Notes under the pieces: model-generated
What the model was told of the DNA's origin: nothing
Databases searched by the model: none
Seen by the model: only the letters and a program-made list of their open reading frames with translations
Translations under genes and position numbers: made by a program
Source: Nitrosopumilus sp.
GTDB lineage: Archaea > Thermoproteota > Nitrososphaeria > Nitrososphaerales > Nitrosopumilaceae
Assembly (NCBI GenBank): GCA_965249555.1
Contig: OZ252243.1
Coordinates: 608,001 to 672,000, forward strand
Direction: 5' to 3'
Length of the DNA stretch: 64,000 nucleotides
Part shown: in pieces, positions 21,756 to 41,925 of the stretch
How the letters are laid out: each line of letters opens with the position of its first letter
Position numbering within the stretch: position 1 is the stretch's first letter

Positions 21756-22940
21756 TTACCTGTCTGCCTCCACTGGCCAATAATTAAGACTCCAATAAAC
21801 TGATGGCATGTTGCCAAGTTTTTCACCTTTGAGAAGATATGGTAATGCAATCAGGTTTCTAAAGGAGGGAACACTCATCTTTAATCTGTATGGTTCAGGT
21901 TTGCCATCTGAAACAATATAGTAGCCTAAAGAACCCCGACCAGACTCTACACGTTTGTATACTGTATCAAATCCTTTCCCTTTTGGATTTGGTTTTAGTT
22001 TAACTCTAACAGAACCGGACTTTGGCATTTTTTGTAATGCTTGTCTAATTATGTTGCAGCTTTCCATCATGTCAAGCCACGGGATTTTGGATCTTGCATA
22101 AGCATCTCCTGCTGTCATCACGTTAGTGTGAATGTCCAACTCATCATAAACATCGTAAGGTTCTTTCTTTCTAAGATCAAAATCAACGCCACTTGCACGA
22201 AGTACAGAACCAGTTGTTCCAAGTCTAATTGCATCTTGGCGCGATAGTACACCAGTATCTTGGGTTCTTGAAATTAGAATTGGGTTGTCATAAAAGACTG
22301 CAGCATATTCTTTGATACGTTTTTCAAAATAGTTGACTTGACGTAAACAGACATCTTCAAAGTTTGGTGGCAAGTCATTTCTTACTCCGCCAGGAATAAA
22401 ATGTGCATGTGTGACTCTAGCACCAGTCATTTTTTCCATTAGATCAATTAAGAGCTCACGGTCACCTGCGGGCCACATAAACATTGTAGAATGTCCTAAG
22501 AAAATTCCATAAATTGCAAGCCAATACATTATGTAGATACACCTGTTTAGCTCAGCTGCAATGACTCTGACATACTGTGCACGCTCAGGAACTTCAATTC
22601 CAAGAAGTTCTTCAACTCCCAATACATATGGATAAAGAACATTACATGAATCATGGATTACTGGTCTTTCCAAGTGAGGGACATTTGTGATATAGTTTCT
22701 ATATTCTGCCATTTTTTCTTCTCCGCGGTGTACGTATCCAGGATCAGGATCGCAGGCAACAATATAGTCACCATCAATTTGTACAATAAGTCTCATGTGA
22801 CCAGAACCCGGATGCTGTGGTCCAACATTAAGAGTCATGATTCTCTCATCAACTTTTTTGAGTGCTAATCCTGGTGGTAACCAATCAGATGATGGTTTTT
22901 CCATCTGTATTTCTGATGATGCTGGTAATTCTGTAGTCAT
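21756..22940 (-). CDS. nuoD: NADH-quinone oxidoreductase subunit D
   Basis: LNVGPQHPGSGH and GYVHRGEEK motifs; start set at MTTELP. Confidence 0.95.
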   Translation of the reverse strand: MTTELPASSEIQMEKPSSDWLPPGLALKKVDERIMTLNVGPQHPGSGHMRLIVQIDGDYIVACDPDPGYVHRGEEKMAEYRNYITNVPHLERPVIHDSCNVLYPYVLGVEELLGIEVPERAQYVRVIAAELNRCIYIMYWLAIYGIFLGHSTMFMWPAGDRELLIDLMEKMTGARVTHAHFIPGGVRNDLPPNFEDVCLRQVNYFEKRIKEYAAVFYDNPILISRTQDTGVLSRQDAIRLGTTGSVLRASGVDFDLRKKEPYDVYDELDIHTNVMTAGDAYARSKIPWLDMMESCNIIRQALQKMPKSGSVRVKLKPNPKGKGFDTVYKRVESGRGSLGYYIVSDGKPEPYRLKMSVPSFRNLIALPYLLKGEKLGNMPSVYWSLNYWPVEADR

Positions 22941-22942
22941 CT

Positions 22943-23539
22943 CTATCTTCCCTTTATTGCAAAGTCCTTTCGAAGTGGAGGCAAGTCTGCCCAATCTTCT
23001 GGCAAAAGTAATCTTCTGTTATCAGGATGGTTTTCAAAGAAAACACCAAACATTTCAAAAACTTCCCGTTCATGAAACTCTACACTGTAAAATATATCTC
23101 TAAGACTGGGAAGTTTTGTCGCGTCATTTCCAGGAATTGGATTTTCTTCTCGTTGGGCCCTAGTAGATAGGGCGATAATTTGTCTTGCTAATGAAGAATC
23201 AGAATAAGAGCCAATATGATAGACAACTTCAATCTCTTTGTCTTGCGGATAGTCTACGCCTGAAACAGATTCTACATGATCATAGTTTAATGCATCACGG
23301 ATGAACTCTGCAACGTCATGGATATTTTCCCGACTTGCACTAATTCCAATCCTATCTTCTTTAACAAATGTAACTGCAACTTTATCACCGAATTTTTCAG
23401 TTATCTTATCGGAAATTCCTTTCTCAAATGCAGGTAATTCTACTGATTCTTCTGGTTTTTTTGCTACGGGTTTAGGCGGAGGAGGTGTTTTTACTTCAGG
23501 TTTAGCATCAGCAGGAGGATTTTCAGTCTCGGCACTCAT
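22943..23539 (-). CDS. nuoC: NADH-quinone oxidoreductase subunit C
   Basis: EREVFEMFGVFFENHP..RRLLLP...PLRKDF motif. Confidence 0.95.
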   Translation of the reverse strand: MSAETENPPADAKPEVKTPPPPKPVAKKPEESVELPAFEKGISDKITEKFGDKVAVTFVKEDRIGISASRENIHDVAEFIRDALNYDHVESVSGVDYPQDKEIEVVYHIGSYSDSSLARQIIALSTRAQREENPIPGNDATKLPSLRDIFYSVEFHEREVFEMFGVFFENHPDNRRLLLPEDWADLPPLRKDFAIKGR

Positions 23540-24236
23540 TATACAAACTTCCTAGATGTCATACATTTTAGCGTTTATTTGGGATTTTATGTATATACCA
23601 GAAGATCGATATTGGGCAAGATCTGTCATTTTTCCAGATATTAGTATGTGATTTTACTATTAAAACAAATGGTTTTGAAAATTCAGCGATTGCTGGATCA
23701 GTTTTTGATAACGCTTCTTTGGTATTTCGGCATTGTGGAAACCATTCATTTTTGACACGTTTGCAGACTAGATTCATCTGTTTGGATCCATTGGAAATGC
23801 TTTGTGACAAGAAAAAAGAGAGGTCACAAACATGTGATGGTTCTCTCCAAAAATACCAAAAAACAAGATGTTAAAAAATGCAAAATCTGCAAACATCATT
23901 TTTTTCTTTTCTAATTATTAATTATGACAATTTCATCATCAAATTAGTAGAATATTTTATTTACACACAAAAGCTAAACCCCCATTTTAATTCTTCAAAA
24001 AAAATTTAGGATGTAATTACAGTTTCTTTATCAAGTTTTCTTTCAAGTTCCACTATAGTTGTTGAGTTAACATCTAAGAGTACATTTTACCAAATATAAA
24101 ATTTATCAGTATCTACTGAAAAAACGTGGGTTTTTCTTTTATGTCTACACCAGTTATTTGTGAAAGAGTAACAACAATATTATCTAAAGTGTAATCTGAT
24201 ATTCCTTCTTTAACAATGATTTGTAATTTTTTCAAG

Positions 24237-24467
24237 TTACTTCTCGACGATTGTCAGATCAACCAAATTGTTACCAAATTTCTTTTCAATCTCGTGTGAT
24301 ACTTTGATGGCATCTTCCCAACTTGAGAATGTTTTTAGTGCAGTATGATCATAACTTTTATCCTTTACAGTCTTGTTTTTAAAATCAGGCATTAAAAGTT
24401 GAGTTTTTTTGCATGAATCCTCATCAATACAAGTCAAACGAAATTCAAAAACAGGCATTAGAAACAT
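24237..24467 (-). CDS. Hypothetical protein
   Basis: 76-aa ORF. Confidence 0.4.
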   Translation of the reverse strand: MFLMPVFEFRLTCIDEDSCKKTQLLMPDFKNKTVKDKSYDHTALKTFSSWEDAIKVSHEIEKKFGNNLVDLTIVEK

Positions 24468-24971
24468 TCCTCCTTTAATTCCAAATAATAATGTAGGTTC
24501 AAACTAAACAATACATTCATCCCATAAACCCTCTCTAATTCTGTTTGGAATTGTTTGTTCTATTAACTGCTTTTCTATGAATACAGTTTTCATGATACAA
24601 ATCATCTGTTTCATTTAGATAGGATGTGGTTCATATATTTATGATGATCTTAATTAATATGCAGTTAAATATCAAACCAATTTTATTTCCTTATTATCAT
24701 AGGAATTATTTGAATATGGGTGTTCCAATCAGATACAAAACACCAATAAGAAATGACACATAGAATCTTGCTAGGGATTTTTATTTGTTTTGTAATCATT
24801 CCAATGAACAAAACATAATGAGATCCTTTGCTTTCTCTATTTGAATAATTTGAGAAATCGGTTAAAAATGAGAATTGATTATGTCCATGTCTCAATTATC
24901 TAATATTATAACTACAGGATCACATATAAAAATTTTAAAGATTTATACCATACTGATTATGTTTGTATAAT

Positions 24972-25946
24972 ATGAAATTTTTAGATGAAGATAGATTATT
25001 AGCAGAAGTAGAGTTAGAACCAACACAGGGTTCACGTTTCCAACCAACAGGATTCCCATCATTAGGATCTGCAGAATTCACAACTGTGGATAACGAAGGC
25101 AAAAATATTAACTCACTTTTAGTAGAATCTACACAATCAATGGCAAACAGATTAGAAGTTGTTTGTATGAATGATACAAAAACTGAACTTGTAGAAACAC
25201 TTTCTGATTTACCTGTAATAAAATTAAATGATTCAAATGGGAATTTTATAACAAATTCCATACTTGAAGCACATCGCATGAATTCATCATACCTACTAAA
25301 AGGAGAAAAAGGTAAATTGCTTCATAAGATATCAACCGATCTAGACATAACGGATAACAAAACACATGTTCCAAATATTTCAAAATTTGCAGAATTTGTT
25401 TTCAAATATGATACAAACTCCATTTTACACGGATTGTTTTTAGCTAACTCTGACATAGCAGGTGGTAGATACAAACTTACTCGTTCTCTTTCCTCATTTA
25501 TTGAAGCATCAAATATCAAAGTCAGTGTAAGTGGAGGAGTAAAGCTTGATCACATTGATCCAAAAGGTGGTGAAGGTGGAGCAGAAAAAGGATACGGGCA
25601 CATACCATACTCTAGAACAGAATACACAGCAGAATCAATAAAGGCATACTTTAGTATAGATTTGTCACTTATTCGTTCATATGGTCTATCTAATGTTGCA
25701 AATGAATTTCTATTGACATTTGCAATGTGGAAGATTCAATCTTTTCTTAAAACAGGACTACGACTTCGCACTGCATGTGATCTGAAAGTAAAAAATACCT
25801 TGGCTGTAACGTATCCAAACAACGTAACCATTCCAAGTCTAGATGAATTAGATACAGACTTGAGAAACAGTATAAAAAAATGTAAAAATGAAGGACTTTT
25901 TTGTACGGATCCGATAATCGTAGAACATATAGAGACAAAAAAGTAA
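24972..25946 (+). CDS. csb1: Type I-G Cas7 (Csb1)
   Basis: RFQPTGFP, LLVESTQSMANRLE, LEAHR and LRLRTACDL motifs. Confidence 0.93.
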   Translation: MKFLDEDRLLAEVELEPTQGSRFQPTGFPSLGSAEFTTVDNEGKNINSLLVESTQSMANRLEVVCMNDTKTELVETLSDLPVIKLNDSNGNFITNSILEAHRMNSSYLLKGEKGKLLHKISTDLDITDNKTHVPNISKFAEFVFKYDTNSILHGLFLANSDIAGGRYKLTRSLSSFIEASNIKVSVSGGVKLDHIDPKGGEGGAEKGYGHIPYSRTEYTAESIKAYFSIDLSLIRSYGLSNVANEFLLTFAMWKIQSFLKTGLRLRTACDLKVKNTLAVTYPNNVTIPSLDELDTDLRNSIKKCKNEGLFCTDPIIVEHIETKK

Positions 25947-25956
25947 TGGAACCAAA

Positions 25957-27429
25957 TTGTTTTGTATTAGAATCTGTTTTTTAAGTGGAGCTTATCATGC
26001 AACTCCATGGGGTAAACATGTCAACGAAGGAATTCCAGAATGGCCGCCATCTAGTTGGCGTCTTCTGCGTGCAATCATAGCGTCATGGAAAAACACATGT
26101 TCAGATATAACAGAGGATACAGTATGGCCAATTTTGCAAAAATTAATACAAGAACCCCCAGAGTATTATCTTCCAGATGCAAGTGTCTCTCACACACGTC
26201 ATTACATGCCAACATACAATAAACCAACATTAATCATGAATACATTTGTAGTTACGGGAGACAGACCGTTAGACATAATATGGAAATATGTGGAATTAGA
26301 AAAAAATGAAATTGATACTCTTGAAAAAATTTTAAAGAATATGCATTATTTTGGACGTGCAGAGTCATGGTGTACTGCAGGCATACAAGTAAAACCAAAT
26401 GAACCAAATTGTAGCAAGTTTGATGAACAGAGCATCCCAAAAGATGTAGAGTTGGTAAGAGTTTTGGTTCCAAACAAAGGTGTAAAATTTAAAGATTTTT
26501 CAGAACAATTCAAAGAATTAAAAAAAAATAATACAGACAACATAAGTGTAACTACTCAACAATTACAAGACAAGGGATTCATAGATCCGCCAGGTGCAAG
26601 ATGGATTCGCTATACCAGACCAGTGAATTGTTTTGAAGCAAAGACAAACGATACAGTCACAACTGAAACATTATCAAAAGTAACACTGATTCGTTATGCA
26701 GTAGTAAATACAGTTAGGCCAGAAATCAAAGACACATTACGCGTCGGAGATTTAGCAAGAACCGCTTGCATGTCCAGATACGGTAAAAAGAAAAATGGCG
26801 GTACATCAAAAATATTTTCAGGTAAAGATGAAAATAAAAAGCCGTTAGAAGGTCACAAACATGCTTTTTATCTACCAACATACGAGACACAGAATAAAGA
26901 GATAGATCATATTACCATTTTTGCAAAAGGTGGGTTTAATGCAGATGAGTTAGATGTATTATTCTCGTTGAAGAGATTATACCGATATGATTTGATGGAC
27001 ATACGCCTGATCTTTGAAGATTGTGGTACGGTTGATAATTTTACAGACATTCCCATATTTAAAAAAGAGCGTGTTTGGGTATCTACCACGCCGATGGTTC
27101 TTTCTAGACACATCAAATATCGCGGAACGGGATCAAACAAACATATGGTTGATGGTCCCAAAGAACAAATTTCTAATGAAATAAAACAAAGATACGATTC
27201 TTCATATAAAATTAAAGACATACAAATAGATGAAAAACCAACAAACATGCATAATACAAATATCAAACCATTTGATTTTTTCAGATGGCGAAATCATGGA
27301 AGAGTGGGAAGTGATAAGACATACAAAGTTAGATTAGAGTTTGAAGAACCTGTAAAAGGACCAATTACATTGGGATATGGATCACATTTTGGATTGGGCA
27401 TGTTTGTACCAGAGGATTATCATGAATAA
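25957..27429 (+). CDS. csb2: Type I-G Cas5/Cas6 fusion (Csb2)
   Basis: YHATPW, EWPPSSWRLLRA and GPITLGYGSHFGLGMF motifs. Confidence 0.93.
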   Translation: MFCIRICFLSGAYHATPWGKHVNEGIPEWPPSSWRLLRAIIASWKNTCSDITEDTVWPILQKLIQEPPEYYLPDASVSHTRHYMPTYNKPTLIMNTFVVTGDRPLDIIWKYVELEKNEIDTLEKILKNMHYFGRAESWCTAGIQVKPNEPNCSKFDEQSIPKDVELVRVLVPNKGVKFKDFSEQFKELKKNNTDNISVTTQQLQDKGFIDPPGARWIRYTRPVNCFEAKTNDTVTTETLSKVTLIRYAVVNTVRPEIKDTLRVGDLARTACMSRYGKKKNGGTSKIFSGKDENKKPLEGHKHAFYLPTYETQNKEIDHITIFAKGGFNADELDVLFSLKRLYRYDLMDIRLIFEDCGTVDNFTDIPIFKKERVWVSTTPMVLSRHIKYRGTGSNKHMVDGPKEQISNEIKQRYDSSYKIKDIQIDEKPTNMHNTNIKPFDFFRWRNHGRVGSDKTYKVRLEFEEPVKGPITLGYGSHFGLGMFVPEDYHE

Positions 27430-29782
27430 TTCACCAAACTACAAAAACTTTGAAGCTTTTTTTAAAAAAGCTACAGGATATGATCCCTATCCTTATCAGA
27501 TCAAACTTGCAGAATCCCAAATACCAGCAGTGATTAATGTACCTACAGGTGCAGGTAAGACAGAAGCTGCAATATTATCATTATGGATGTGGAGAAGGGA
27601 ATTAAAAGATGAAAATACACCAACCAGATTAATTTATTGTCTTCCCATGAGAGTGTTAGTGGAGCAGACCGTTCAGAGAGTGAGGAAATGGATCGAAAAT
27701 TTAGGATTAGATGATGTAATTGGAGTAATATCGCTTATTGGAGGTAGTAAGTATGAAGAATTCCAAAAACACCCCAGTAAAAAATACATCATCATAGGCA
27801 CACAAGATATGCTTATTTCAAGTGCACTTAATCGAGCATATGGAAAGAGTCCATATGCATGGCCCGCCTTTTTTGGTCTGTTTAATAATGACTGTATGTG
27901 GATCATGGATGAAATACAGATTATGGAAAATGGTCTCCCAACATCACTACAATTAGATGTATTTCGTAAGCAATTTAAAACATATGGATCATCAAAGACA
28001 GTTTGGATGTCTGCCACAATAAACAAAGATTGGCTGAAAACGATAAATTTTGACGGCATAAAGGATTCAGAGATTTGTAGTCTGGGTAAAGAAGATAAAA
28101 ATCATGAAGAGTTAAAAAAGCGCAACGAGGCAGCAAAAACACTTCACACCGCAGACATTGAATTTAAAAAATATGATAGCAAAGTTGTAAAATATCTGTA
28201 CAGTCTACACAAAAAAGGAACAACTACTGCCATCATGGTAAACACGGTTAAAAGAGCGCAAGAACTGTATGATCTATTTAAAAAAGAAGGATTAGAATGC
28301 AAATTAATTCATTCTAGGTTTAGAGAGAAAGACAGATCCGAATTAAATAAATGGATAAATAACTTGGGCAAAGAGGAAGTCATCATATCAACACAGGTAC
28401 TAGAAGCAGGAGTAGATATTTCTGTTCGTACAATGATCACAGAGATTGCACCATGGGCAAACATGGTACAACGTTTTGGAAGATGCAATAGAACTGGGGA
28501 ATTAGACCAAGCTGACATATACTGGATAGATCTACCTGACAAATTATTTGCACCATATGAAGAAAAAGATATGGAACTTGCAAAAGAAAAATTAAAAGAG
28601 CTGGACAACAAGTCAGTATCTCCAATTAATCTTCCAGACATCACAGAACAGAAAATTTTTGATGTCATACTACGAAAAAGAGATTTGGTGGATCTGTTTG
28701 ACAATGCATCTGACATATCTGGGAATTATGTAGATGCCTCAAGATTTGTACGTACAATTAAGCAGCAATTAAATGTCGAAGTATTTTGGAGAGATGATCT
28801 AACAAATAATGAAGAAGTGCAGAAACAAAACAGACATGAACGCAATGAGATATGCAGTGTTCCAATATATGATCTAAAAGAATTTCTAAAAAAAGCAAAA
28901 GTGGCATACTCGTGGAATAATGTAGAAGAGAAATGGGAGAGGATTAAAGCAGGTAAAATTTTTCCCGGACAAGTAGTTATGATAGATAGCAAAAAAGGAG
29001 GATATTCAAAAACATATGGATGGAAAAAAGAAATTGGAGAAAAAGTAGAGGCATGCCAAACATCAGATAAAAAAAATGATTCAAATGGATATGATGCACA
29101 ATCAGAATCAAAGAATCCAGTAACGCTAGAAGAACACACCAGTCATGTATCAGAAGAGATGAAAACCATACTAGCCAAATTGAAAATCATAGATAAGGAC
29201 ATCAAAGATATCATGACTACTGCTGCCAGATATCATGACATTGGTAAGATACACAATGTATTTCAAGACACATTAAAAAAAGGAATCATAGATAATGAGA
29301 TTGCCAAAACCAAAATATGGGCCAAGAGCCAAAAAATGAGTAAACATTCCATACCAGGTTTCAGACATGAGGTAGTCAGTGCACTAGTATATCTTAAACA
29401 ACCAGGCATAACACAAGATAAAAAATTGCAGAATCTTGTGGCATATCTTATAGTTTCACATCATGGAAAAGTTAGACTCTCATTAAGAGATGTAATTAAG
29501 AAAAAATATGAGGTAAAAGACCAGAAATATTTGTTAGGAATAAATGTAAATGGTGAGACCATACCAGAATTCTCTAGCGATGCAGTATCTGTCAAGGCAA
29601 CTGAAATAGACGTTTTATTAGCAAAAATTGGTCAAAACAATACATCAGAACCATCATGGGTAGAAAGAGCATTGTCTTTACGTGATGAGTATGGACCATT
29701 CCGTCTTGGATATCTTGAATCGTTACTCAGAGCAGCAGACACACTTGCCAGTCAAAAAGAGAGTGAAAGAAGATATGACTAG
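27422..29782 (+). CDS. cas3: Type I-G Cas3 (helicase with C-terminal HD nuclease)
   Basis: PTGAGKT, DEIQ, SAT and QRFGRCNR, followed by HDIGK...HHG at the C-terminus. Confidence 0.95.
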   Translation: MNNSPNYKNFEAFFKKATGYDPYPYQIKLAESQIPAVINVPTGAGKTEAAILSLWMWRRELKDENTPTRLIYCLPMRVLVEQTVQRVRKWIENLGLDDVIGVISLIGGSKYEEFQKHPSKKYIIIGTQDMLISSALNRAYGKSPYAWPAFFGLFNNDCMWIMDEIQIMENGLPTSLQLDVFRKQFKTYGSSKTVWMSATINKDWLKTINFDGIKDSEICSLGKEDKNHEELKKRNEAAKTLHTADIEFKKYDSKVVKYLYSLHKKGTTTAIMVNTVKRAQELYDLFKKEGLECKLIHSRFREKDRSELNKWINNLGKEEVIISTQVLEAGVDISVRTMITEIAPWANMVQRFGRCNRTGELDQADIYWIDLPDKLFAPYEEKDMELAKEKLKELDNKSVSPINLPDITEQKIFDVILRKRDLVDLFDNASDISGNYVDASRFVRTIKQQLNVEVFWRDDLTNNEEVQKQNRHERNEICSVPIYDLKEFLKKAKVAYSWNNVEEKWERIKAGKIFPGQVVMIDSKKGGYSKTYGWKKEIGEKVEACQTSDKKNDSNGYDAQSESKNPVTLEEHTSHVSEEMKTILAKLKIIDKDIKDIMTTAARYHDIGKIHNVFQDTLKKGIIDNEIAKTKIWAKSQKMSKHSIPGFRHEVVSALVYLKQPGITQDKKLQNLVAYLIVSHHGKVRLSLRDVIKKKYEVKDQKYLLGINVNGETIPEFSSDAVSVKATEIDVLLAKIGQNNTSEPSWVERALSLRDEYGPFRLGYLESLLRAADTLASQKESERRYD

Positions 29783-31865
29783 GATAACACTTGAGTGCAC
29801 ATCAACGTTACTATCAGACTATTTCAAAGCTCTAGGCATATTTCGAATCATGACAGAACAAAGCGATTCTAATATTACAGCATATTGGAGATATGATAAA
29901 TTTGTTTTGGAAACAAGCATGAGTGAAGAAGAAATTTTGGAGTTTATTTTAAAACAATACAAGCCGACGCCTATAATCACACCGTGGAGTTATAACAAAT
30001 ACATAAAAACAAAAGCATCAATCAAAACAAAATTAGATGCAAAAGATGATAGGTTTGAATCATATCGTACGGTAATACAAGAAATAGACAAAATTAATGA
30101 AATGTTCTGCAAGATTTTAAATCTAAATGAAATGAAAAAAGATACCATAACTAAAAAAACAAAGTTGTTATTTTTGCAACTATGTAGAAATAATTTTCCA
30201 GATGAAGCATTATCTTGGCTAGATGTAAATGTTGTGCTAGATGGAACAGATGCAAAATTTGCACCAATTACAGGATCGGGTGGAAATGACGGTAATTTTG
30301 ATATGGCTGAAAACTTTGTCAAGTATCTAATAGAGATGTTTGATCATAATGAAGAATCCAAAAACTTGCTGAAAGAATCACTCTTTGGAGGATCAAGTAA
30401 ATTGGAAGAAACAACTATGATAGGTCACAACCCAGATGGGAATAGTAGTGCAACATCAGGACAAGGTTTTGAAGGTAGATCACTGTCAAACAAGTGGGAT
30501 TACATACTGATGTTAGAAGGAATAATCTCGTTTGCAGGAAATCTGGCTAGACGTCAATCTCAAGGGAAAGGGAAAGCAGTATTTCCATTTACAACAGATG
30601 GCTCACATGTTGGCTATGCAACTGCATCAGATGATGAAAGGGATATCAGAGGTGAGATATGGTTGCCAATATGGAATAATCCTGCCACGTATAGAGAGAT
30701 CGCACATATGTTTAGTGAAGGACGGGTTCAGCTTAATGGAAAACAAGCTGGGACAGGAACAGAGTTTGCACGTGCCATAGTTAGTTTAGGTGTGGAAAGA
30801 GGGATATCGGCATTTCAAAGATTCAGTATTGTGCAAAGAAAAGGAGACGCATATTATTACATCAATGCAGGTAAAATACACACCGCAGATGAATCTGCAG
30901 TTTATTTATTAAGTGAGTTGGATAATTGGTATAATCCAATTTATCAAAAGAGCCAATCAAAAGAGAGTCCAGTGTCGATAAAACGGCATGTCAGAAATTT
31001 TGAAAACGAAGTGATGGAATTTTGCAAATATAGAAAAAAAGAACATCTCTTAAAAATAATGATTCAGGTTGGAAAGATAGAAAAACAGACATCATTGAGC
31101 AAAGAATTAAACCCATTACAGGAACTATCTGCGCAGTGGCTTGATGAGAGCTATGACAATTCAGTGGAATTTAGACTGGCAGCATCCATTGCATCAATAA
31201 AATCAGATAACAACGTAGGAGGAATACGAGAAAACTTGGAAGATATACAATATGGAGAAAGATGGGAACATAAAAAAGAATCAACAACATCTGTGTGGAA
31301 AGAAAATGATGATCTATTAAGGAATATGGGTCGTGTATTGCAAAGACGTGGAATAGATGGTAAAATAAAATCATTGGATGCCATACCAATTAAGGGGATC
31401 ATACCTGCAAGAATGGAGGATATTATAAAATTTCTCAGAGGAGAAGTAGATATGAGAAAAATAAATGACCTAGTTCTTCCGTTATCCATGATATCAATAA
31501 ATCAAAAGACAGAATATCCTTGGAAATCTATGAATAATGATGATATTTACGATATGCCAATACCAGAAGCATATATCATAATGAAGTTGATATGTCCTCC
31601 AGATAGAGATGAAAAAATCCCATACGACACATCAATACTAAATATGTTACATGCAGGAAGATTTGATGATGCTTATGCAAAAACAGCATACATACTACAT
31701 TCACACATGCGATCACCATTAAAATATTCAAAAATAAACGGCATGCCTAAAATATTGATTTCAGATATCATTAAAAAAAATATAATGGCGTCACTATTGT
31801 TTCCAATTTCAAAACATGATAGACAGAAAATGTTGCGTATGGTTACAGTTCAACAAAATTCATAG
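29775..31865 (+). CDS. csx17: Type I-G Cas8 (Csx17/Cas8g)
   Basis: YFKALG, YKPTPIITPW, GSGGNDG and GEIWLPIW motifs. Confidence 0.9.
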   Translation: MTRITLECTSTLLSDYFKALGIFRIMTEQSDSNITAYWRYDKFVLETSMSEEEILEFILKQYKPTPIITPWSYNKYIKTKASIKTKLDAKDDRFESYRTVIQEIDKINEMFCKILNLNEMKKDTITKKTKLLFLQLCRNNFPDEALSWLDVNVVLDGTDAKFAPITGSGGNDGNFDMAENFVKYLIEMFDHNEESKNLLKESLFGGSSKLEETTMIGHNPDGNSSATSGQGFEGRSLSNKWDYILMLEGIISFAGNLARRQSQGKGKAVFPFTTDGSHVGYATASDDERDIRGEIWLPIWNNPATYREIAHMFSEGRVQLNGKQAGTGTEFARAIVSLGVERGISAFQRFSIVQRKGDAYYYINAGKIHTADESAVYLLSELDNWYNPIYQKSQSKESPVSIKRHVRNFENEVMEFCKYRKKEHLLKIMIQVGKIEKQTSLSKELNPLQELSAQWLDESYDNSVEFRLAASIASIKSDNNVGGIRENLEDIQYGERWEHKKESTTSVWKENDDLLRNMGRVLQRRGIDGKIKSLDAIPIKGIIPARMEDIIKFLRGEVDMRKINDLVLPLSMISINQKTEYPWKSMNNDDIYDMPIPEAYIIMKLICPPDRDEKIPYDTSILNMLHAGRFDDAYAKTAYILHSHMRSPLKYSKINGMPKILISDIIKKNIMASLLFPISKHDRQKMLRMVTVQQNS

Positions 31866-31945
31866 ACAGAAATAGAGTTACAATATAAAGATTCAACATT
31901 TTTACAAGTTGATGAATTTTATAGATTTACAGACTTGTTAAGCAA

Positions 31946-34900
31946 TCTTCAATGAAGCCATAATTTTTTGTTATGGCAATCAGTGTAGATACTTTGTTCC
32001 ACATATCAACTCTACTAGGCTTCAAGAGAGTTGTAACTTTATCGTTACAGAAATTTGGTGGTCATGTGCCATATCAGAACGCCCTGATGTTATGCTTCAA
32101 TGGGGCTGTAACTTTATCGTTACAGAAATTTGAGAATAAATCCAGTAATAAATGGATTACCAGTTCCAGCGCTTCAATGGGGCTGTAACTTTATCGTTAC
32201 AGAAATTTTATGCGCTATGTGTTATGTTTGTCATACTCATGTAGCTTCAATGGGGCTGTAACTTTATCGTTACAGAAATTTCACAAATTGTAATACAATA
32301 AGGGTACTATAACGGTTGCTTCAATGGGGCTGTAACTTTATCGTTACAGAAATTTTATGCGCTATGTGTTATGTTTGTCATACTCATGTAGCTTCAATGG
32401 GGCTGTAACTTTATCGTTACAGAAATCACTCGGATGTTGTTTTCCCTGCACGTCTGATATACAGAGCTTCAATGGGGCTGTAACTTTACCGTTACAGAAA
32501 TTGGCTCCAGCTTTGGTAATCTCAAGAATGATCTCGCCACGCTTCAATGGGGCTGTAACTTTATCGTTACAGAAATCACTCGGATGTTGTTTTCCCTGCA
32601 CGTCTGATATACAGAGCTTCAATGGGGCTGTAACTTTACCGTTACAGAAATTGGCTCCAGCTTTGGTAATCTCAAGAATGATCTCGCCACGCTTCAATGG
32701 GGCTGTAACTTTATCGTTACAGAAATGGCTTAATCAAAGATGTTATCTCAATGTCCGTATATTATCAACTTCAATGGGGCTGTAACTTTATCGTTACAGA
32801 AATATAAAGAGGAAGCTGAGGGTTTCACAATCGATTTTCTAGCTTCAATGGGGCTGTAACTTTATCGTTACAGAAATTTTGTGAGGTTTGAAGTTTGAAG
32901 TGGACAGTTTCCCAAGCTTCAATGGGGCTGTAACTTTATCGTTACAGAAATTCTGTTATCTTTGATTTTTAGTTTGATTTTATCTTCTTCAGCTTCAATG
33001 GGGCTGTAACTTTATCGTTACAGAAATCTAAAAATGTTTTGACTGCTGTCGGCGTGTAAGCCGGGCTTCAATGGGGCTGTAACTTTATCGTTACAGAAAT
33101 TTCCATCAGCTCCAGTTTCATCTTTACCAAATGCTTTGCTTCAATGGGGCTGTAACTTTATCGTTACAGAAATTTCTCCAGCCGGATATTGATAACCGTG
33201 AGCCTTCATGCTTCAATGGGGCTGTAACTTTATCGTTACAGAAATTTCGAAAAGCCAATTAGTAAACTTGGTACGACTCACCTGCTTCAATGGGGCTGTA
33301 ACTTTATCGTTACAGAAATTGTAAGTTACAGGATAACGCAATAAATCTATGCTCAGCTTCAATGGGGCTGTAACTTTATCGTTACAGAAATACTTTATCA
33401 CGATTACGGTTTAGATAGTCAAGGACAAGCTTCAATGGGGCTGTAACTTTATCGTTACAGAAATAAATGAATCAGCGAATAGTTCGACATCAAATTTCTT
33501 GCTTCAATGGGGCTGTAACTTTATCGTTACAGAAATCTGATGATAACATCTTTGCTGAATTTCATGTTCATGCTGCTTCAATGGGGCTGTAACTTTATCG
33601 TTACAGAAATCATGAGTGATTTGTTGTCCTCGAGTTGGTCCTCCATGTGCTTCAATGGGGCTGTAACTTTATCGTTACAGAAATGATACAACTTGAAAAT
33701 ATTGCAAAAGCAGAAGCACGCTTCAATGGGGCTGTAACTTTATCGTTACAGAAATTGGAAAATCAAGCTTCAAAATTAATGGCTACAACATCGCTTCAAT
33801 GGGGCTGTAACTTTATCGTTACAGAAATTTCCCTATGGACCTTCCTTTGCAGGTCCTTGTATTTCTCAGCTTCAATGGGGCTGTAACTTTATCGTTACAG
33901 AAATGCGGCAGCCAATCCCGACGGCTTGGCTTCCATCATAGACGCTTCAATGGGGCTGTAACTTTATCGTTACAGAAATGTAGTAATTGCATTCATCTGC
34001 ATTTGACTTGCACCACCGCTTCAATGGGGCTGTAACTTTATCGTTACAGAAATTTCGGCTTTGAAAATTGCTAATGCTTTAGATTTTTTGCTTCAATGGG
34101 GCTGTAACTTTATCGTTACAGAAATCTTGATGTCTCAAACAGCAAGAGTTCAAACTAGATTAGCTTCAATGGGGCTGTAACTTTATCGTTACAGAAATAT
34201 AGAACGGTTATCAGGTCAAAGAGCGTTAAAAGTAGCTTCAATGGGGCTGTAACTTTATCGTTACAGAAATTTGGATAGCGATTGGATAGCTATGACAAAG
34301 CAACTGGAAGCTTCAATGGGGCTGTAACTTTATCGTTACAGAAATCTGCATCAGTAAGAAATAGTAGATTGTCTACAGCCGTTGCTTCAATGGGGCTGTA
34401 ACTTTATCGTTACAGAAATGATGGATCAGGCTATACCAGGGGTATTGGGTCAGGGATGCTTCAATGGGGCTGTAACTTTATCGTTACAGAAATTTAGTGT
34501 TACTGAAAATTCTAGGTTAGGATGGTCCAAAGCTTCAATGGGGCTGTAACTTTATCGTTACAGAAATTTTGAAAAAGAAACTTTGAAAGAAGACAAAGAG
34601 AGAGCGCTTCAATGGGGCTGTAACTTTATCGTTACAGAAATCTTAGGTTGTAGAACTCAAAGAACAGCTGACATTATCGCTTCAATGGGGCTGTAACTTT
34701 ATCGTTACAGAAATGTCAGAATTAGTTTGAGTAAAAACACTACCTTTTCTCGCTTCAATGGGGCTGTAACTTTATCGTTACAGAAATTTAGCATACAAGA
34801 GATAGCCTCCGATACCAACCGCTCCTGGCTTCAATGGGGCTGTAACTTTATCGTTACAGAAATTTCTCAAAATGAAAAAAATTGTTAACAATGTCCAAGC

Positions 34901-35538
34901 TTCAATGGGGCTGTAACTTTATCGTTACAGAAATTTTGAGCCTTTCAATTACACTAGTTAAAATTTTAGATGCTTCAATGGGGCTGTAACTTTATCGTTA
35001 CAGAAATCACCAAGTCGTGCAATACCTCCACCAGGTCCTCCTGGCTTCAATGGGGCTGTAACTTTATCGTTACAGAAATTTGATTGTTTCGACAAGATTC
35101 CAACTGACACCTAGATCCTGGAGGCTTCAATGGGGCTGTAACTTTATCGTTACAGAAATTAGGATATCAGCGCCACGACTTAGGCCCGCTGCTAAATTTG
35201 TGCTTCAATGGGGCTGTAACTTTATCGTTACAGAAATATGGTATACAAGCAACATATCCGTACGAAGTGTGTATTGTCTACGCTTCAATGGGGCTGTAAC
35301 TTTATCGTTACAGAAATATCGAATTTAGAAAACTTGTCGCAATTAGAACATTTATGCTTCAATGGGGCTGTAACTTTATCGTTACAGAAATTTTTATAGA
35401 GCTATAAAGCCTAATATAAACCCTAAATGCTTCAATGGGGCTGTAACTTTATCGTTACAGAAATTTCTGTTTGTTCTTTTTTAGCCTTGTCAAGACTACT
35501 TTGCTTCAATGGGGCTGTAACTTTATCGTTACAGAAAT
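31946..35538 (-). CRISPR. Type I-G array: 49 repeats (two degenerate at the left, trailer end) and 48 spacers of 35-44 nt
   Basis: 36-bp repeat ATTTCTGTAACGATAAAGTTACAGCCCCATTGAAGC (minus strand) with CTGTAAC/GTTACAG stem; orientation from the ATTGAAGC 3' end, degenerate left repeats and AT-rich leader next to cas2. Confidence 0.98.
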
Positions 35539-35690
35539 GGGGTCATTTTCTCTAAAACCGTTATCATGTTTTTGTTTCTAGTTGTTTTTCAATTGTTATC
35601 TGACGATTCAAGCAAATCATAGACATTGCTGTGGTATGATATTTTTTTCATATATATTATATCTGCGAGAGTATTATCATACTTACCTTG
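35539..35690 (-). promoter_or_regulatory. CRISPR leader
   Basis: AT-rich non-coding stretch between cas2 and the first perfect repeat, with a TATA-like element. Confidence 0.7.
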
Positions 35691-35691
35691 A

Positions 35692-35801
35692 CTTGTAACC
35701 CATCGCATTTTCTTTGCCCTATATCACTTGCGCAAAGCTCTTGATAGGGCTTCTTGTCAGGCATCTTGTAACCCATCGCATTTTCTTTGCCCTATATCAC
35801 T
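35692..35801. repeat. 37-bp direct duplication flanking a 36-nt insert
   Basis: CTTGTAACCCATCGCATTTTCTTTGCCCTATATCACT at 35692-35728 and 35765-35801. Confidence 0.95.
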
Positions 35802-36079
35802 ACGGATCTCTCCCTTTCCGTATCCATTTGTGCCCCTATTACTGATATTCTTTCTTTACTTTTATTTAAGGAGCCAAGATTAATTATCAAAATTTTATCT
35901 TCAACCATATTCATTATATCCTCTAACTCTTCTTTCATAATTATTATTTCCTTGTAGTTAAGATCACACATAAACACAGAATATTGTACAGGTTCCCCAT
36001 ACCCCTTCATCTTTTTATGTATCTGTATCAATCGTTGCGGATCATGTATATCGTAACATACAAAGTATCTATTGCGCAA
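35792..36079 (-). CDS. cas2: Cas2
   Basis: YFVCYDIHDP.RL...GYGEPVQYSVF; TTG start assumed. Confidence 0.93.
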   Translation of the reverse strand: MRNRYFVCYDIHDPQRLIQIHKKMKGYGEPVQYSVFMCDLNYKEIIIMKEELEDIMNMVEDKILIINLGSLNKSKERISVIGAQMDTERERSVVI

Positions 36080-36083
36080 ACCT

Positions 36084-37769
36084 TCATCTTGTCCTAAATG
36101 CAGGATATGTTGGAATCTCTCCAAGAATATGTCTGGCAAGTAATCTTGTTTGAGTTTCCATTATGCGTTTATAGCTGGCAGCATAACCCAAAAGTGGATG
36201 AATAACAACAGAATCCATACGTCTCTCATATGCAGTTATCACTGTAGAACGCCCTCTATTGGTAAGGTTTGTTCCAAAGTCGGTCTTTATCAAATCTGAT
36301 TCATTGATTTCACCGTTATTGATAAGCGTAATACATGTAGAATCTGCTACAATTGGTCTGAATTCCTCGATCATATCAAGTGCAAGTGCGGGTTTCCCAT
36401 ATTTTGGCATATGAAGAAATCCCAGATAGGGATCAAGACCTACTCTACTAACTGTAATCATTGCATTCCTTGTCAACATTGCATATAGAAATGACATAAT
36501 TGCATTAACTGGATCCTTTGGAGGTCTTCTGTTTCTTCCATTAAAATCAAAAGCCGTTGATTCAGATTTTATCATGCCATTAAATTCTGAAAAATATATG
36601 CGTGCAGCCATTCCCTCTATTCCAAGAAGAGTATCATATTGTTTTACAGTACATGCACGTTGTGCAAGTATGTTCATCTTGTGTATCTTATCTATAGGGG
36701 GAGATTTGTGGTTTCTACGTAGCATTGTCATGCAATTTTTTATTTTTCCAAACACCATCTGACGAGCTATCCCAATGGATGCATTTTTAACATCATATTT
36801 TTTATGCTGTTTAATTCGCAGTTCTATATTTTTATGTGAAAGTCCTGTAGTAATACCCGTAAACCATCCTCCATATGTCATGTAACAGATAGGAATATTT
36901 CGCTTGCTTAACTCCCTTATTGCTTGTGTTGTGATCTGGATATTTCCAAATAGTGTAATTTCTGAAATGTCTATCAATCTAATCTTCTTTATTATTGTAT
37001 CTTTTAATTTTACATGAATGCAATCATTTGATTTTGTAATATGTGCTCCCTGTTCCTGTATGTATACTGGTATGGTGTCATTTCTTATTGGATACATTCT
37101 GCGTATCTGGTCCTTGTTTATTTGATGAGTCTCATCTGATAACAAATTGACTTCATCAGGTAGACATATTCCCACAAGGGAACATCTTGGACATTTCGGA
37201 CTGTCAACCAACGGAGCAGGTATTGTATATGACTTTGCCATTTCTTTCATCTCTTTGATCATCTGTAATGTTTTTTTTACTGTTTGATCATCTAGATTAA
37301 TTTCTATTCTTTGCTTTGATGCAATATAATAAACAAAACCCTTTGTACATGTGTATCCATTTGCACGTAGTAAAAGTCCTTGAGCACATACTTGTATGAT
37401 GTGATCATCATATGTTCTGTTAGGAGTATTGGGAGTGCTGCCACGTTTGTATTCTATTGGTGTTGCAACGTTTCCATCTAATTCAAGTAGATCTGTTTTA
37501 GATATCAATCCAAGCTCTGTATCAGACAAAGTAACTGATCTGGCATGAATCTTTTCTACTGTGATATTATCTTTATCGGTCTTTTGTTCAAGCATTTTTC
37601 CTCCTGACGGTTTGTCTACATTTCTATGCTGATATTTGCCGTCTATCACATCTTTGTTGGATTCAAATTCCCCTTGAACCCATTCCATATATGCAAGTCG
37701 TTTACAATATACGAATTGTGTTAGCATTCTTACTGGTATAAGATTTGAATTAACACTTGATGTACTCAT
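36084..37769 (-). CDS. cas1: Cas4-Cas1 fusion
   Basis: YCKR, PIEYKRG and CPRCSLVGIC (Cas4); GIEG.AAR.YF, RNRRPPKDPVNA and DMIEEFRP (Cas1). Confidence 0.95.
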   Translation of the reverse strand: MSTSSVNSNLIPVRMLTQFVYCKRLAYMEWVQGEFESNKDVIDGKYQHRNVDKPSGGKMLEQKTDKDNITVEKIHARSVTLSDTELGLISKTDLLELDGNVATPIEYKRGSTPNTPNRTYDDHIIQVCAQGLLLRANGYTCTKGFVYYIASKQRIEINLDDQTVKKTLQMIKEMKEMAKSYTIPAPLVDSPKCPRCSLVGICLPDEVNLLSDETHQINKDQIRRMYPIRNDTIPVYIQEQGAHITKSNDCIHVKLKDTIIKKIRLIDISEITLFGNIQITTQAIRELSKRNIPICYMTYGGWFTGITTGLSHKNIELRIKQHKKYDVKNASIGIARQMVFGKIKNCMTMLRRNHKSPPIDKIHKMNILAQRACTVKQYDTLLGIEGMAARIYFSEFNGMIKSESTAFDFNGRNRRPPKDPVNAIMSFLYAMLTRNAMITVSRVGLDPYLGFLHMPKYGKPALALDMIEEFRPIVADSTCITLINNGEINESDLIKTDFGTNLTNRGRSTVITAYERRMDSVVIHPLLGYAASYKRIMETQTRLLARHILGEIPTYPAFRTR

Positions 37770-38112
37770 ATGTTTTGAAATTATTTTTCATATAAATAAA
37801 TCAATATATTGATGAGATAATTACTAAATGAGATAGATACAGTATCAATTATTGCTGTTTGAATTTCAGGATTATGTAACAATTCATCTCTCTCTAATTC
37901 TTGATTGAATTGCACTTGAAGAATATGAGTAATACTGAATTACTTTTTTGATTTCTTTAGACTTTTCTCGTATCTCTCAAATACTTTATCATCTCTTTTG
38001 CTCCATGGTTACTCTTCTTTGAGTTTGGTTTCTTCCATAGTTATATTATAACTATTTTGTTATTCAATTGCTTAAGCTTTGGTGATTTTGAAAATATAGG
38101 TCTCGATACCCG

Positions 38113-38637
38113 TTATACAAACTTTCTAGCCTTCATTCTCTTGATTTTTTCTTGCAACAAAATACATCCTTGGATGAGAGTTTCAGGTCTAGGCGGACAG
38201 CCAGGAACATAGACATCGACTGGAATCACTCCGTCAATTCCCGGAAGTACATTGTATGAATCAAAATACAACCCCCCAGTAATTGCACAAGCTCCCATAG
38301 CAATTACATACTTTGGTTCTGGCATTTGATCATAAACTAGTCTGAGACGTGGTGCCATTTTTCTTGTAATAGTTCCTTGAACAACAATTAGATCACATTG
38401 TCTAAGTGATCCAAATGCCTCAATGATACCAAATCTTTCAACATCATATCTAGGACTTGATGCTGCACCAAATTCAACACTGCAGCAAGCCGTTTCAATG
38501 TGGACAGGCCAGAGTGACCAAATTCTACCCCAATTGATGGCATAGCCCAATGGTTTGCCGATTGCCCGCTCTAAAATGTCCCCTAGCTTTCCTACAAAGA
38601 CATTTGCATTTTCTGGCGTTACTAAATCATTAAGCAA
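38113..38637 (-). CDS. nuoB: NADH-quinone oxidoreductase subunit B
   Basis: TACCSVE, MGACAITGG and VPGCPPRPE motifs. Confidence 0.96.
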   Translation of the reverse strand: MLNDLVTPENANVFVGKLGDILERAIGKPLGYAINWGRIWSLWPVHIETACCSVEFGAASSPRYDVERFGIIEAFGSLRQCDLIVVQGTITRKMAPRLRLVYDQMPEPKYVIAMGACAITGGLYFDSYNVLPGIDGVIPVDVYVPGCPPRPETLIQGCILLQEKIKRMKARKFV

Positions 38638-38676
38638 TCTTATCCCCTATCTCATAAATGCAATTTATATAAAAAA

Positions 38677-39051
38677 CTACCATATTCTTCGCCTCCCAGA
38701 CTGATACAATGCAAATGCCATTGCGCCAAACATTATAGCTAAAAATCCCATCATTGGCAAAGTTGCACTCTTTGGAAGTTCCAAAAGGGCACTTCCCCAG
38801 GCATACAGGAAGATTGCCATGACATCAAAGACTACAAACATCAGAATGTAGGGATAATACTGCATCATAAAGTGAGTCCGGCCTTCGCCTGACGGGACTT
38901 GACCGCATTCCATTGGTAAAAATTTCACAGGATTGTTTATTTTTCGAGGAGAAATCATCCTAGAAATAACTAAAGCCGGAGCCATAGCTGCTACGGCAAA
39001 TCCAAACATCAATACAACAATACTGTAATTGCCCGCTAATTCTCCGACCAA
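38677..39051 (-). CDS. nuoA: NADH-quinone oxidoreductase subunit A
   Basis: PMECGQ and YYPYILMFVVFDV motifs. Confidence 0.95.
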   Translation of the reverse strand: MVGELAGNYSIVVLMFGFAVAAMAPALVISRMISPRKINNPVKFLPMECGQVPSGEGRTHFMMQYYPYILMFVVFDVMAIFLYAWGSALLELPKSATLPMMGFLAIMFGAMAFALYQSGRRRIW

Positions 39052-39102
39052 TTTAGCTTTTCACTACAATTTTTGTATATAATTCAATCGTTTCAAAGGT
39101 TC

Positions 39103-40025
39103 TCCCATACGAAATCGTCTCCAACCCTACTGAGGACACTTACTAGCGTGCTTTGCTGAATCAGGACATCTCAGATATGCTTTGCATCTTATACTTTCGT
39201 TGTGTCAGTTCATGATTTTGTGTACGATACACTTTCAGAATTTGTTAGCATGTACCCGGATTATTGCAAGCATCCGGTCTTGCAGCTGCCACCTTTGCCT
39301 TTTGTTTTCCTCTTCTCTTTGCAATTCTGAAATAGAATGATTCCATTCTTTCATCAAATCGTACTATAGTATTTGCAGCCTCTACCATTGCGTTACGTAA
39401 CCATGCAGAACCCCTCTTTGTTATTCCGCCTCCTCGGTGCACATCTGCGCTGTCCCTGTGCGATGGTGCAAGTCCTGCATATGAGACTAGTTTTTCTGCT
39501 GTTGCAAATCTGCTGATGTCAACTATCTCTGAAATTATTGTCAATGCCGTGACATAGTTTATTCCAGGAATGGTCATTAGCAGTCTTGTTTTCTCATCCT
39601 CATTGCTAATTGTTGCAATCTTTATCTCAATTGTGTTGATCTGTTTTTGCATCATATCTATGCTGTCAAGATATGCATCCATTGCCATTCTGTCAACCTC
39701 ACTCAGATTAATTTCATGCAACCATCGTACTCCTTTTTGCGAGAATGTCTTTGTGGGTGTAATCATATTTTGCAAGTATTGCATAAATCATGTTTTTGTG
39801 TTTTGATACATTTCGCACGCGATTCAGTCTGGTTCTTACCAGACTGTATAGGTCTCTATAGTATTTTTCTGGTACGAATGAGCTGTACACCATGTCTGCT
39901 CTTAGCAAGTCTGCCAATACGTCTGAATCAAGTTTGTCGTTTTTTATCTTTGCCTGTGCAATTATCTTGGTCTTTGCAGGATGTGCGAGAACTGTATCAA
40001 TTCCATGGTCTTCTAGTGTGTCATG
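39103..40025 (-). mobile_element. IS110-family element, frameshifted and 5'-truncated transposase plus 3' non-coding end
   Basis: LMTIPGI, SYAGLAP..RDS and ITKRGSAWLR motifs; KIKNDKLDS..LADLLR fragment; end sequence repeated at 56507-56645. Confidence 0.85.
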
Positions 40026-40910: not shown

Positions 40911-41925
40911 ATGCCTACCTTATTAACAACCAGAGATCGAATTAGTTTTGAGGATAAAATACAGACAAAAGCAGTCAATACGCAGAAAACATCCCAGTCA
41001 TCAGTAAGAAACTTTGAGAGATTTTGCAAGGAAAAGTATGACAAATCAATGGAGGAGATAATATCAGAATATCACAAAGTTGAGATGGATTTAATCTATG
41101 AATCACTGCAAGAATGGATAAACTGGAACAATACAAAGGTTCATTCAAACAGCATTCCTACACTGTTTTCATATCTCAAAACATACCTAAGATATCACAA
41201 GATAAGAATTACAAAAGAGGATGTGGTAAAACAGCTGAGTTTACCTCACAAGGTCAAAGAGGAGAAATATCCATTGACAAAAGAGGAGATCAGAAGCCGA
41301 TGATTTTTTGTTTGATATTGAACATGATTACCTGGGAGAAATATCCATTGACAAAAGAGGAGATCAGAAGGATACTGCAAGTATGCAATAAGAATAACAC
41401 GATCAAGATTCTGGCACAGTTATCAAGTGATATGAGAAAAGGGGAATTGCTCCAGCTGAAAAAAAGAGATCTTGGACAAAAAAGAATCATGGTAAATATT
41501 CCTGCAAGTATTACAAAGACAAAAAGATCAAGGGTGACTTTTTTTAGCAGAGAGATAATACCTTTACTGATGCCGATTCTTAGAAGGCTCTGGCTGATGA
41601 TGACAGAGTGTTTTTTCGTGGAAAGCTAAATCCTGCAAACATAAGCAATCACTACCAGCTGATTCTGACAGAGTATCTAAAGAGGACAGGGCTTGATCAA
41701 AAATATGAATCCGGACGTCACAAGATAACAACACACAGCTTTAGGGCATTTTTTATCACAAAGGTGTCTCTTCATGATCCAAACCTTGCAAAGTACTTTG
41801 CAGGACAGGAACAAACAAGAGACCTGCTGATGTATGACATATTGACAGCAGATGAAAAGTGAGAAAACTATATCAAATTTGAGCCTGATTTGTTGATATG
41901 GGATTCAAATAAAAGCGTAAGGTAA
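40911..41925 (+). pseudogene. Tyrosine recombinase/integrase pseudogene
   Basis: MRKGELLQL, TKTKRSR and HSFRAFF motifs in three frames; disrupted by a 74-nt duplication-insertion and further lesions. Confidence 0.88.
41261..41370. repeat. Exact 36-bp direct duplication flanking a 38-nt insert
   Basis: GGAGAAATATCCATTGACAAAAGAGGAGATCAGAAG at 41261-41296 and 41335-41370. Confidence 0.95.

Follow-up and report, generated by a model that had tools for sequence, protein, structure and literature searches.

Spacers directed against chromosomal genes of other prokaryotes are already known. A study of inter-species mating in Haloferax reportedly described such spacers against related prokaryotes, and a study of Porphyromonas is said to have done so for related or co-occurring ones; in E. 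coli, Levy et al. reportedly found in 2015 that acquisition hotspots lie near arrays and at free DNA ends. In synthetic Cleave-and-Rescue (ClvR) systems, a guide against an essential gene is combined with a linked, cleavage-immune version of that gene carrying synonymous differences. Sures et al. 2025 (PMC12612501) also concerns spacers against chromosomal genes of other prokaryotes, and Shiimori et al. 2017 (PMC5737086) places hotspots of self-spacer uptake, in an archaeon, at CRISPR arrays, transposases and recombination sites. Here, a locus of Nitrosopumilus sp. is described in which a type I-G CRISPR-Cas island lies within the nuo operon and one spacer of its array, sp7, is homologous to the neighbouring gene nuoA. 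The DNA analysed, referred to as the window, is a stretch of 64,000 nucleotides (nt; G000:C1:608001-672000) from a 2.23 Mb genome assembled as one contig with 34.4% GC.

The nearest experimental analogue of a CRISPR-based drive comes from Haloferax volcanii where, in the preprint by Choudhary et al. 2025 (10.1101/2025.06.18.660351), Cas3-dependent cutting of the partner chromosome raises recombination and enriches CRISPR-positive recombinants. That system is a laboratory construct of type I-B with known cell fusion and gene flow into the cutter, whereas the Nitrosopumilus locus offers a sequence footprint alone, of type I-G, in a lineage without known mating. Targeting of relatives' genes can thus bias recombination in Haloferax, and a natural footprint of the process has been missing so far. 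Like other spacers against relatives' genes, sp7 corresponds to a housekeeping gene of a relative, has a proper protospacer-adjacent motif (PAM) and could limit or bias recombination. It is unlike them in that no genome with the exact target was found, and in that its resident homologue lies 3.4 kb from the leader, inside a phylogenetically demonstrable recombinant tract which shares ancestry with the adjoining CRISPR island. The locus resembles the self-uptake hotspots of Shiimori et al. 2017 in that the homologue, beside a transposase remnant, is only a few kb away from the array, on its leader side. Unlike hotspot-derived self spacers, sp7 is not a self-targeting spacer by definition, as it matches the resident genome at 30/39 positions.

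A spacer homologous to nuoA

The features that carry the argument are as follows, in window coordinates.

32019..35538, minus strand: CRISPR array with 48 repeats (36 nt each) and 47 spacers, of which 44 are unique
32502..32540, minus strand: sp7, the nuoA-like spacer, 30/39 to resident nuoA
32652..32690, minus strand: sp9, an identical copy of sp7; it belongs to a duplication of the sp6-sp7 unit, with a T>C variant repeat
38677..39051, minus strand: nuoA, 124 amino acids (aa)
38946-38984 (nuoA nt 68-106), plus strand: protospacer-like site, with TTC on its 5' side at 38943-38945 in the sense of the CRISPR RNA (crRNA)
38939..39101, minus strand: recombinant tract of G195/G303 type, made up of nuoA nt 1-113 and some 50 nt before the gene

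Direct comparison bears out the sequence-only reading that had drawn attention to this locus: aligned with the reverse complement of 38946-38984, sp7 and sp9 show 9 mismatches in 39 positions, each at a third codon position, and the encoded peptide, APALVISRMISP, is unchanged. On the plus strand of the spacer, the mismatches fall at positions 8, 14, 17, 20, 23, 26, 32, 35 and 38, which in crRNA numbering are 32, 26, 23, 20, 17, 14, 8, 5 and 2. The only codons left unchanged are those of Met and two Ala. The site had been placed within 1 kb of the island edge, and lies 834 nt from it if the edge is taken as the nuoB stop.

The significance of this match was assessed by an ungapped Hamming scan of the whole genome and by a codon-phase scan that ignores one codon phase. 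In the first, the best hit of sp7 was 30/39 and its runner-up 25/39, while the best hits of the other spacers were 23-29. In the second, sp7 matched at 26/26 non-wobble positions and the runner-up among the 44 spacers at 21/24, so that the nuoA match reflects homology and not chance. The value of 30/39, being the best in the own genome outside the array, falls short of the near-perfect match expected of self-targeting.

The crRNAs should derive from the minus strand, because the reverse complement of the repeat ends in ATTGAAGC, the degenerate trailer repeat (4 mismatches) is found at 32019, and the order cas2-leader-array is as in the relative labelled G303. These three lines support the orientation in which the TTC was read as a PAM. 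A 5'-TTN rule for type I-G is given in 10.1101/2022.08.08.503147. The nuoA site was the sole one at which a PAM could be examined, no protospacer having been located for the other spacers; the TTC is kept in most of the nuoA alleles compared. With nine mismatches, including seed positions 2, 5 and 8 of the crRNA, the resident allele should be immune to this guide, as had been predicted from sequence. The best explanation of these observations is that the spacer was copied, with selection for the PAM, from a natural nuoA allele no longer present at the locus. At present the spacer has no target in its own genome; only against incoming DNA bearing the old allele and its TTC PAM could it act.

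The resident nuoA is recombinant

Trees of nuoA plus nuoB were built from 31-32 genomes of less than 15% divergence, in which clade A comprises L042, L065, L074, L084, L046, L078, L066, L069 and L029. On nuoA nt 1-129, the source genome groups with the relatives G195 and G303 (support 99/95), whereas on nt 130-940 it is sister to clade A (99/88; 99/90 for nt 144-892). Approximately unbiased (AU) tests agree: in the 5' segment, the union of the source genome with clade A is rejected (p 0.0013, or 0.0009 with G195 added), and in the middle segment (nt 144-892) its union with G195 and G303 is rejected (p 4e-5). Three-way informative sites are 14 G303-like versus 5 A-like up to nt 113, and 13 versus 61 from nt 144 on. 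The best split falls between nt 113 and 144 (window 38939 to 38908) and was equalled by 0/2000 permutations. An earlier breakpoint test, with groups defined by eye, was not significant (315/2000 permutations); the final tests relied on clades defined on an independent segment and on AU tests.

The resident nuoA is thus evidently, from the trees and site patterns, a recombinant whose G195/G303-type tract covers the protospacer. With the protospacer at nuoA nt 68-106 and the PAM at nt 107-109, the tract ends 4-35 nt past the PAM. At the island side of nuoB, 5/6 of the last informative sites are G303-like, a signal that is weak by eye. By comparison, nuoC and the ancestral upstream neighbour of nuoA are clade-A-like, and no G303-like tract was found on the nuoC side. 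Recombination is also patchy across the genus at nuoA nt 50-66.

To place the resident protospacer among natural alleles, nuoA was gathered with a degenerate peptide pattern from 47/401 family genomes and from 51 loci of a species-level genome collection. The resulting 82 allele rows, duplicates included, have 5-12 mismatches to the spacer and 2-12 to the resident allele. Five genomes carry an allele only 2/39 away from the resident one, which means that, of the nine resident states unlike those of the spacer, seven are widespread; among the resident codons, CCG is own-specific and AGG is rare, and both are unlike the spacer. Among 27 distinct alleles of the closer set, the median pairwise distance is 5 (5-95% range 2-9.5), and it is at least 9 in 13% of pairs.

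By these comparisons, the nine mismatches are ordinary synonymous differences between lineages, and the resident protospacer allele is, to judge from its relatives, an ordinary natural one acquired by recombination and not recoded. The proposal of a synonymously recoded nuoA is therefore abandoned, as 9/39 lies within the range between alleles. The peak of divergence that it predicted at the protospacer was likewise absent: in between-clade divergence, the protospacer window ranks 32 among 113 nuoA windows. Since 0/26 non-wobble positions of the spacer have changed, there would have been little neutral decay since capture, and the nine synonymous differences are unlikely to have accumulated in place. 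Instead, the mismatches reflect a difference between alleles that recombination has created or kept up, at a locus where lineages exchange DNA.

A model in which an element carries a replacement gene end, as in icd-like cases, was also considered and rejected: no second copy of the nuoA 5' end was found in the source genome, G303, G453 or G454. The sole exception is a 38-nt stretch in G303 (L154 1501-1538, G303:C1:1851151-1851188), 87% identical to nuoA nt 84-120, which stands outside any array and is either chance or a stray nuoA fragment.

The CRISPR-Cas island and its relatives

The nuo operon is split between nuoB and nuoC by a complete type I-G CRISPR-Cas island of about 14.5 kb. The genes nuoI, nuoH, nuoD and nuoC (19945-23539, minus strand) remain on one side and nuoB and nuoA on the other, whereas relatives without the island have the stop codon of nuoB directly against, or overlapping, the start of nuoC. 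Besides the array, the island and its borders comprise the following.

22943..23539, minus strand: nuoC, clade-A-like, separated from nuoB by the 14.5 kb island
23539..23643, minus strand: island junction upstream of nuoC, common to the G195 insert (91%) and the G303 insert (90% to the G195 copy)
24963..25946, plus strand: csb1/cas7g, by profile matches
25957..27429, plus strand: csb2, a Cas5-Cas6 fusion, by NCBIfam profile match
27377..29782, plus strand: cas3g, helicase with a C-terminal HD domain, by profile matches
29682..31865, plus strand: cas8g/csx17, by NCBIfam profile match
35539..35791, minus strand: inferred leader between cas2 and the first repeat, conserved with G303 (one high-scoring segment pair runs through 35765, the next from 35709)
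35792..36139, minus strand: cas2 (PF09827)
36084..37769, minus strand: cas4-cas1 fusion (Cas4g/Cas1g), in a region 88.1% identical in nucleotides to G303
38113..38637, minus strand: nuoB, clade-A-like apart from its last 45 nt or so (38113-38158)

The assignment to type I-G, made from sequence in the first place, holds: Cas3g, Cas8g/Csx17, Csb2, Csb1/Cas7g, a Cas4-Cas1 fusion and Cas2 are all present beside an adjoining array, and the NCBIfam profiles score above their cut-offs (score/cut-off: TIGR02621 704.9/400, TIGR04113 525.2/150, TIGR02165 188.9/45, TIGR02570 87.2/38, NF049935 731.1/560). Profile searches found no integrase inside the island (23.6-38.1 kb), and the gaps on either side of the cas genes showed no degenerate repeats. 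Within the array, the duplicated sp6-sp7 unit is 150 nt long and matches at 100%. Duplications are concentrated on the trailer side (window 32171-32726), where sp3 equals sp5 and the sp6-sp7 unit is repeated exactly, variant repeat included.

A BLAST search of the genus with the array as query, limited to the best 2 candidates per genome, placed an island at the nuoB-nuoC site in 2/151 genus genomes, the source genome and G303. The G303 island is likewise of type I-G, with an identical repeat and a strong array match. Over 2049 nt of cas4cas1-cas2 the two genomes are 88.1% identical, a closer match than the 79% across nuoC and the 8 kb that follow it. The effector genes of G303, by contrast, are a different variant (35-46% aa identity), which looks like module shuffling within one insertion site. 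The two arrays have no spacer in common. In G195, a 2.4 kb insert with small open reading frames (ORFs) and without cas genes occupies the same junction (L158 12419-14813), and the 105 nt upstream of nuoC are common to the source genome, G195 (91%) and G303. Eight other type I-G loci in the genus were found, none of them beside nuo genes. A contig of metagenomic sample X3 bridges 23509 to 38115, from which it follows that island-free relatives co-occur.

Together, these comparisons identify the adaptation module, the repeat and the island junction as being of G303/G195 type. They also support a shared G195/G303-type ancestry for the resident protospacer segment and the adaptation module of the island, within a nuoA-nuoB region that is otherwise clade-A-like. 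As to the G303 island itself (L140+L141, G303:C1:1160001-1200000), it has two arrays in opposite orientation, and its cas4cas1 is spread over three frames and possibly frameshifted. One small ORF of the G195 insert is RelE-like by eye.

A second insertion upstream of nuoA

Relatives' DNA upstream of nuoA is syntenic from genome position 741,524 on, which means that about 94.5 kb have been inserted directly upstream of the gene. This insertion spans window 39052-64000 and beyond (genome 647,052-741,523); an IS110 fragment, integrase fragments and a DUF3800 gene stand at its beginning. A search of its junctions for att-like direct repeats of at least 12 nt found none. The relevant remnants are:

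39245..39784, minus strand: IS110-family transposase fragment, C-terminal domain only, by profile match
40911..41629, plus strand: tyrosine integrase fragments in two overlapping ORFs, with a homologous region 80-1000 nt upstream of nuoA in L044

The earlier statement that the locus has no integrase stands for the island proper but overlooked these integrase and IS110 fragments, 0.2-2.6 kb upstream of nuoA. Because they belong to the separate insertion, the CRISPR island does not qualify as an integrase-borne element. Other, differing inserts occur at the same upstream site in L044, L045/G195 and G303, with integrase remnants in the source genome and L044. With inserts on both sides, the nuoA-nuoB pair sits between two variable regions.

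Search for the source of the spacer

The exact 39-mer has no match in the genome_contigs, viral_contigs or metagenome_contigs collections, and the near-perfect nuoA matches that had been anticipated in relatives did not turn up. Among the 82 allele rows, the allele closest to the spacer has 5/39 mismatches. A half-degenerate pattern retrieved one metagenomic contig, 6/39 from the spacer, and the best array match among 150 genus genomes, again with the best 2 candidates per genome, was 35/40. The degenerate nuoA peptide pattern gave no match in viral_contigs, the array gave none among the INPHARED phages, and the leader-proximal spacers sp44, sp43 and sp47 gave none in viral_contigs. When the 39 nt were placed on the tree, a free search put the spacer with L048/L037, and constraint to clade A raised the log likelihood by 1.1 (p-AU 0.557).

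Base rates were taken from the type I-G arrays of relatives. Among their 877 unique spacers, one (G406 #78) clearly resembles a conserved gene of the source genome, and one more (G303 #10) probably resembles a conserved gene. The former matches the only mrp/apbC gene of the G406 assembly at 40/40, with a flank of AAC and not TTN. Spacers resembling conserved genes are thus rare, and a spacer taken at random from the chromosome would be unlikely to have its site as near as 3.4 kb to the leader. Flank-matching spacers had been expected in homologous islands as well, and when the 63 spacers of G303 were compared with its own 40 kb locus, 0/63 rose above background.

The spacer and target of G406 #78 lie at G406:C1:93163-93202 and G406:C2:109107-109146 (L144, L145, L147). 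That assembly is 9% contaminated, and the target contig may come from a co-occurring strain.

Origin of the spacer and of the resident allele

The most probable reading, adopted tentatively, is that the spacer records the nuoA allele which stood at this locus before recombination of the G195/G303 type replaced it. It ranks first because it jointly explains the proximity of the site to the array, the tract over the protospacer and the foreign-looking sequence of the spacer; it also fits the uptake hotspots at arrays, transposases and recombination sites described in PMC5737086. The spacer is compatible with an allele at the base of clade A, as the constrained placement indicates. Several routes could have led to this state. 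Cas4-Cas1-Cas2 might have captured the spacer from free DNA ends at the locus, during or before recombination, the setting being 3.4 kb from the leader and beside transposase and integrase remnants. Alternatively, the spacer would at first have been self-targeting, and carriers would have survived only after the target was replaced. A third route would have the spacer arrive in the array of the donor and force co-conversion of the recipient allele.

A number of points weigh against the replacement of an old allele. Its exact target was found nowhere in the collections searched, which leaves the 'old allele' hypothetical, and 39 nt are too short to place the source: grouping of the spacer with the source genome and G303 (p 0.24) or with B-core and the source genome (p 0.19) is not rejected either. 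All clade-A alleles differ from the spacer at 6-9 positions, whereas some alleles outside clade A differ at 5. Moreover, the 5' end of nuoA abuts an insertion hotspot, which on its own could account for the tract as well as for a spacer of foreign origin. Furthermore, escape from self-targeting usually takes a single change in PAM or seed. Finally, PMC12612501 reports that spacers from other prokaryotes can be up to threefold more numerous than self-targeting ones in metagenome-assembled genomes.

This last point favours the alternative ranked second, a serious possibility, in which the spacer was taken from DNA of another Nitrosopumilus lineage entering the cell, for instance a fragment, or an integrative element, that brought along the nuoA 5' flank of the hotspot. 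Here, the resident allele would never have matched the spacer, and the overlap with the tract would be a by-product of the hotspot. Such third-party capture is consistent with a spacer about equidistant from all clades and with no sampled allele nearer than 5/39. It also agrees with the differing inserts and integrase remnants upstream of nuoA, the patchy recombination across the genus at nt 50-66, the cell-gene-like spacers G406 #78 and G303 #10, and the co-occurrence of island-free relatives in sample X3. However, about 0.5% of random chromosomal spacers would be expected to map within 5 kb of the array, and only about 1-3/921 of the spacers examined resemble conserved genes. The protospacer would fall inside the 113-nt tract by chance, within nuoAB, with a probability of about 8-16%, and viral_contigs yielded 0 records of a virus or mobile element with this nuoA peptide.

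These two readings differ in consequence. If the spacer matches the replaced allele, the genome itself would directly attest that, in ammonia-oxidising archaea, a group in which no means of exchanging DNA is known, CRISPR immunity influences the replacement of alleles and the transfer of islands, or keeps a record of them. If it came from a third lineage, it would be an ordinary inter-lineage spacer at an exchange hotspot. In either case, a defence island sits inside the nuo operon in two species, with its effector module exchanged.

A bolder extension of the third route, which seems unlikely, is that the donor's G195/G303-type island already held a spacer against the recipient nuoA. Cutting by Cascade-Cas3g would then have forced co-conversion of the 5' end, and the spacer would now block reversion and bias exchange with island-free kin toward spread of the island, making it a natural CRISPR cleave-and-rescue element. 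Improbable to a greater degree is an evolved cleave-and-rescue or homing drive, the original proposal for this locus, in which the spacer is kept because it cuts nuoA in kin without the island, and repair then brings in the island together with the immune allele. The arrangement is what co-inheritance would give, as the immune allele and the adaptation module, both of G195/G303 ancestry, lie on either side of some 780 nt of recipient-type DNA. The cas genes appear intact, most alleles carry the TTC PAM, and 0/26 non-wobble positions of the spacer have decayed. The Haloferax volcanii preprint (10.1101/2025.06.18.660351) lends a parallel, since targeting of the mating partner raises recombination and the share of CRISPR-positive progeny. 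In that study, however, DNA flows from the cut genome into the cutter, and not the island into the cut genome.

The locus itself also speaks against a drive. No carrier of the targeted allele was found in the genome, viral or metagenome collections, and the linked allele, although mismatch-immune, is a natural one of G195/G303 type. ClvR thus differs in that the immune version here was imported by recombination, and no target population, spread or second example accompanies it. The island is present at the site in only 2/151 genus genomes, which share no spacers, and G303 has 0/63 flank-like spacers. Furthermore, the nuoA-like spacer is near the trailer end, where its duplication is ordinary array rearrangement, and to our knowledge no mechanism of DNA exchange has been described for Nitrosopumilus.

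Chance resemblance, or a virus-borne nuoA-like gene as the source, is highly improbable. The absence of the exact source from the searched collections would fit it, but 26/26 non-wobble matches against a background of at most 21/24 exclude chance statistically, and neither the exact spacer nor the peptide pattern occurs in viral_contigs, nor does the array match INPHARED. Least credible of all is escape in place by stepwise synonymous point mutation of the resident protospacer after acquisition of a self-derived spacer; it could account for nine purely synonymous differences and for the own-specific CCG and rare AGG, but seven of the nine resident states are common to many relatives, the segment is a recombinant tract, a single seed or PAM change would suffice, and a neutral spacer would have decayed at non-wobble positions.

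Other spacers and repeats

Two further spacers have partial matches in the own genome, 1.3 kb apart: sp41 (27/36; peptide TRA[IM]PPPGPP) and sp23 (an exact stretch of 21 nt), at L033 8565-8600 and 9826-9860 (genome 1,610,564 and 1,611,825). This may be a resident relative of a targeted element. Matches of sp39 in G421 and G450 (29/35, in a zinc-finger gene) were set aside as chance or low complexity, since in the frame of that gene the spacer reads a stop codon. An orphan pair of CRISPR repeats at genome 1,884,688-1,884,798 is 83% identical to a repeat-spacer-repeat unit of the array.

The 94.5 kb insertion holds repeats of other kinds. At window 47922-48201, a perfect 30-nt tandem repeat of 9.3 copies lies in a gene for a periplasmic-binding protein of 495 aa with an extensin-like region. 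Further along, over about 26 kb (genome ~680,000-705,700), copies of a 13-nt word of sp42 are spaced at roughly 492 or 984 nt, a periodicity that indicates a very long tandem-repeat region.

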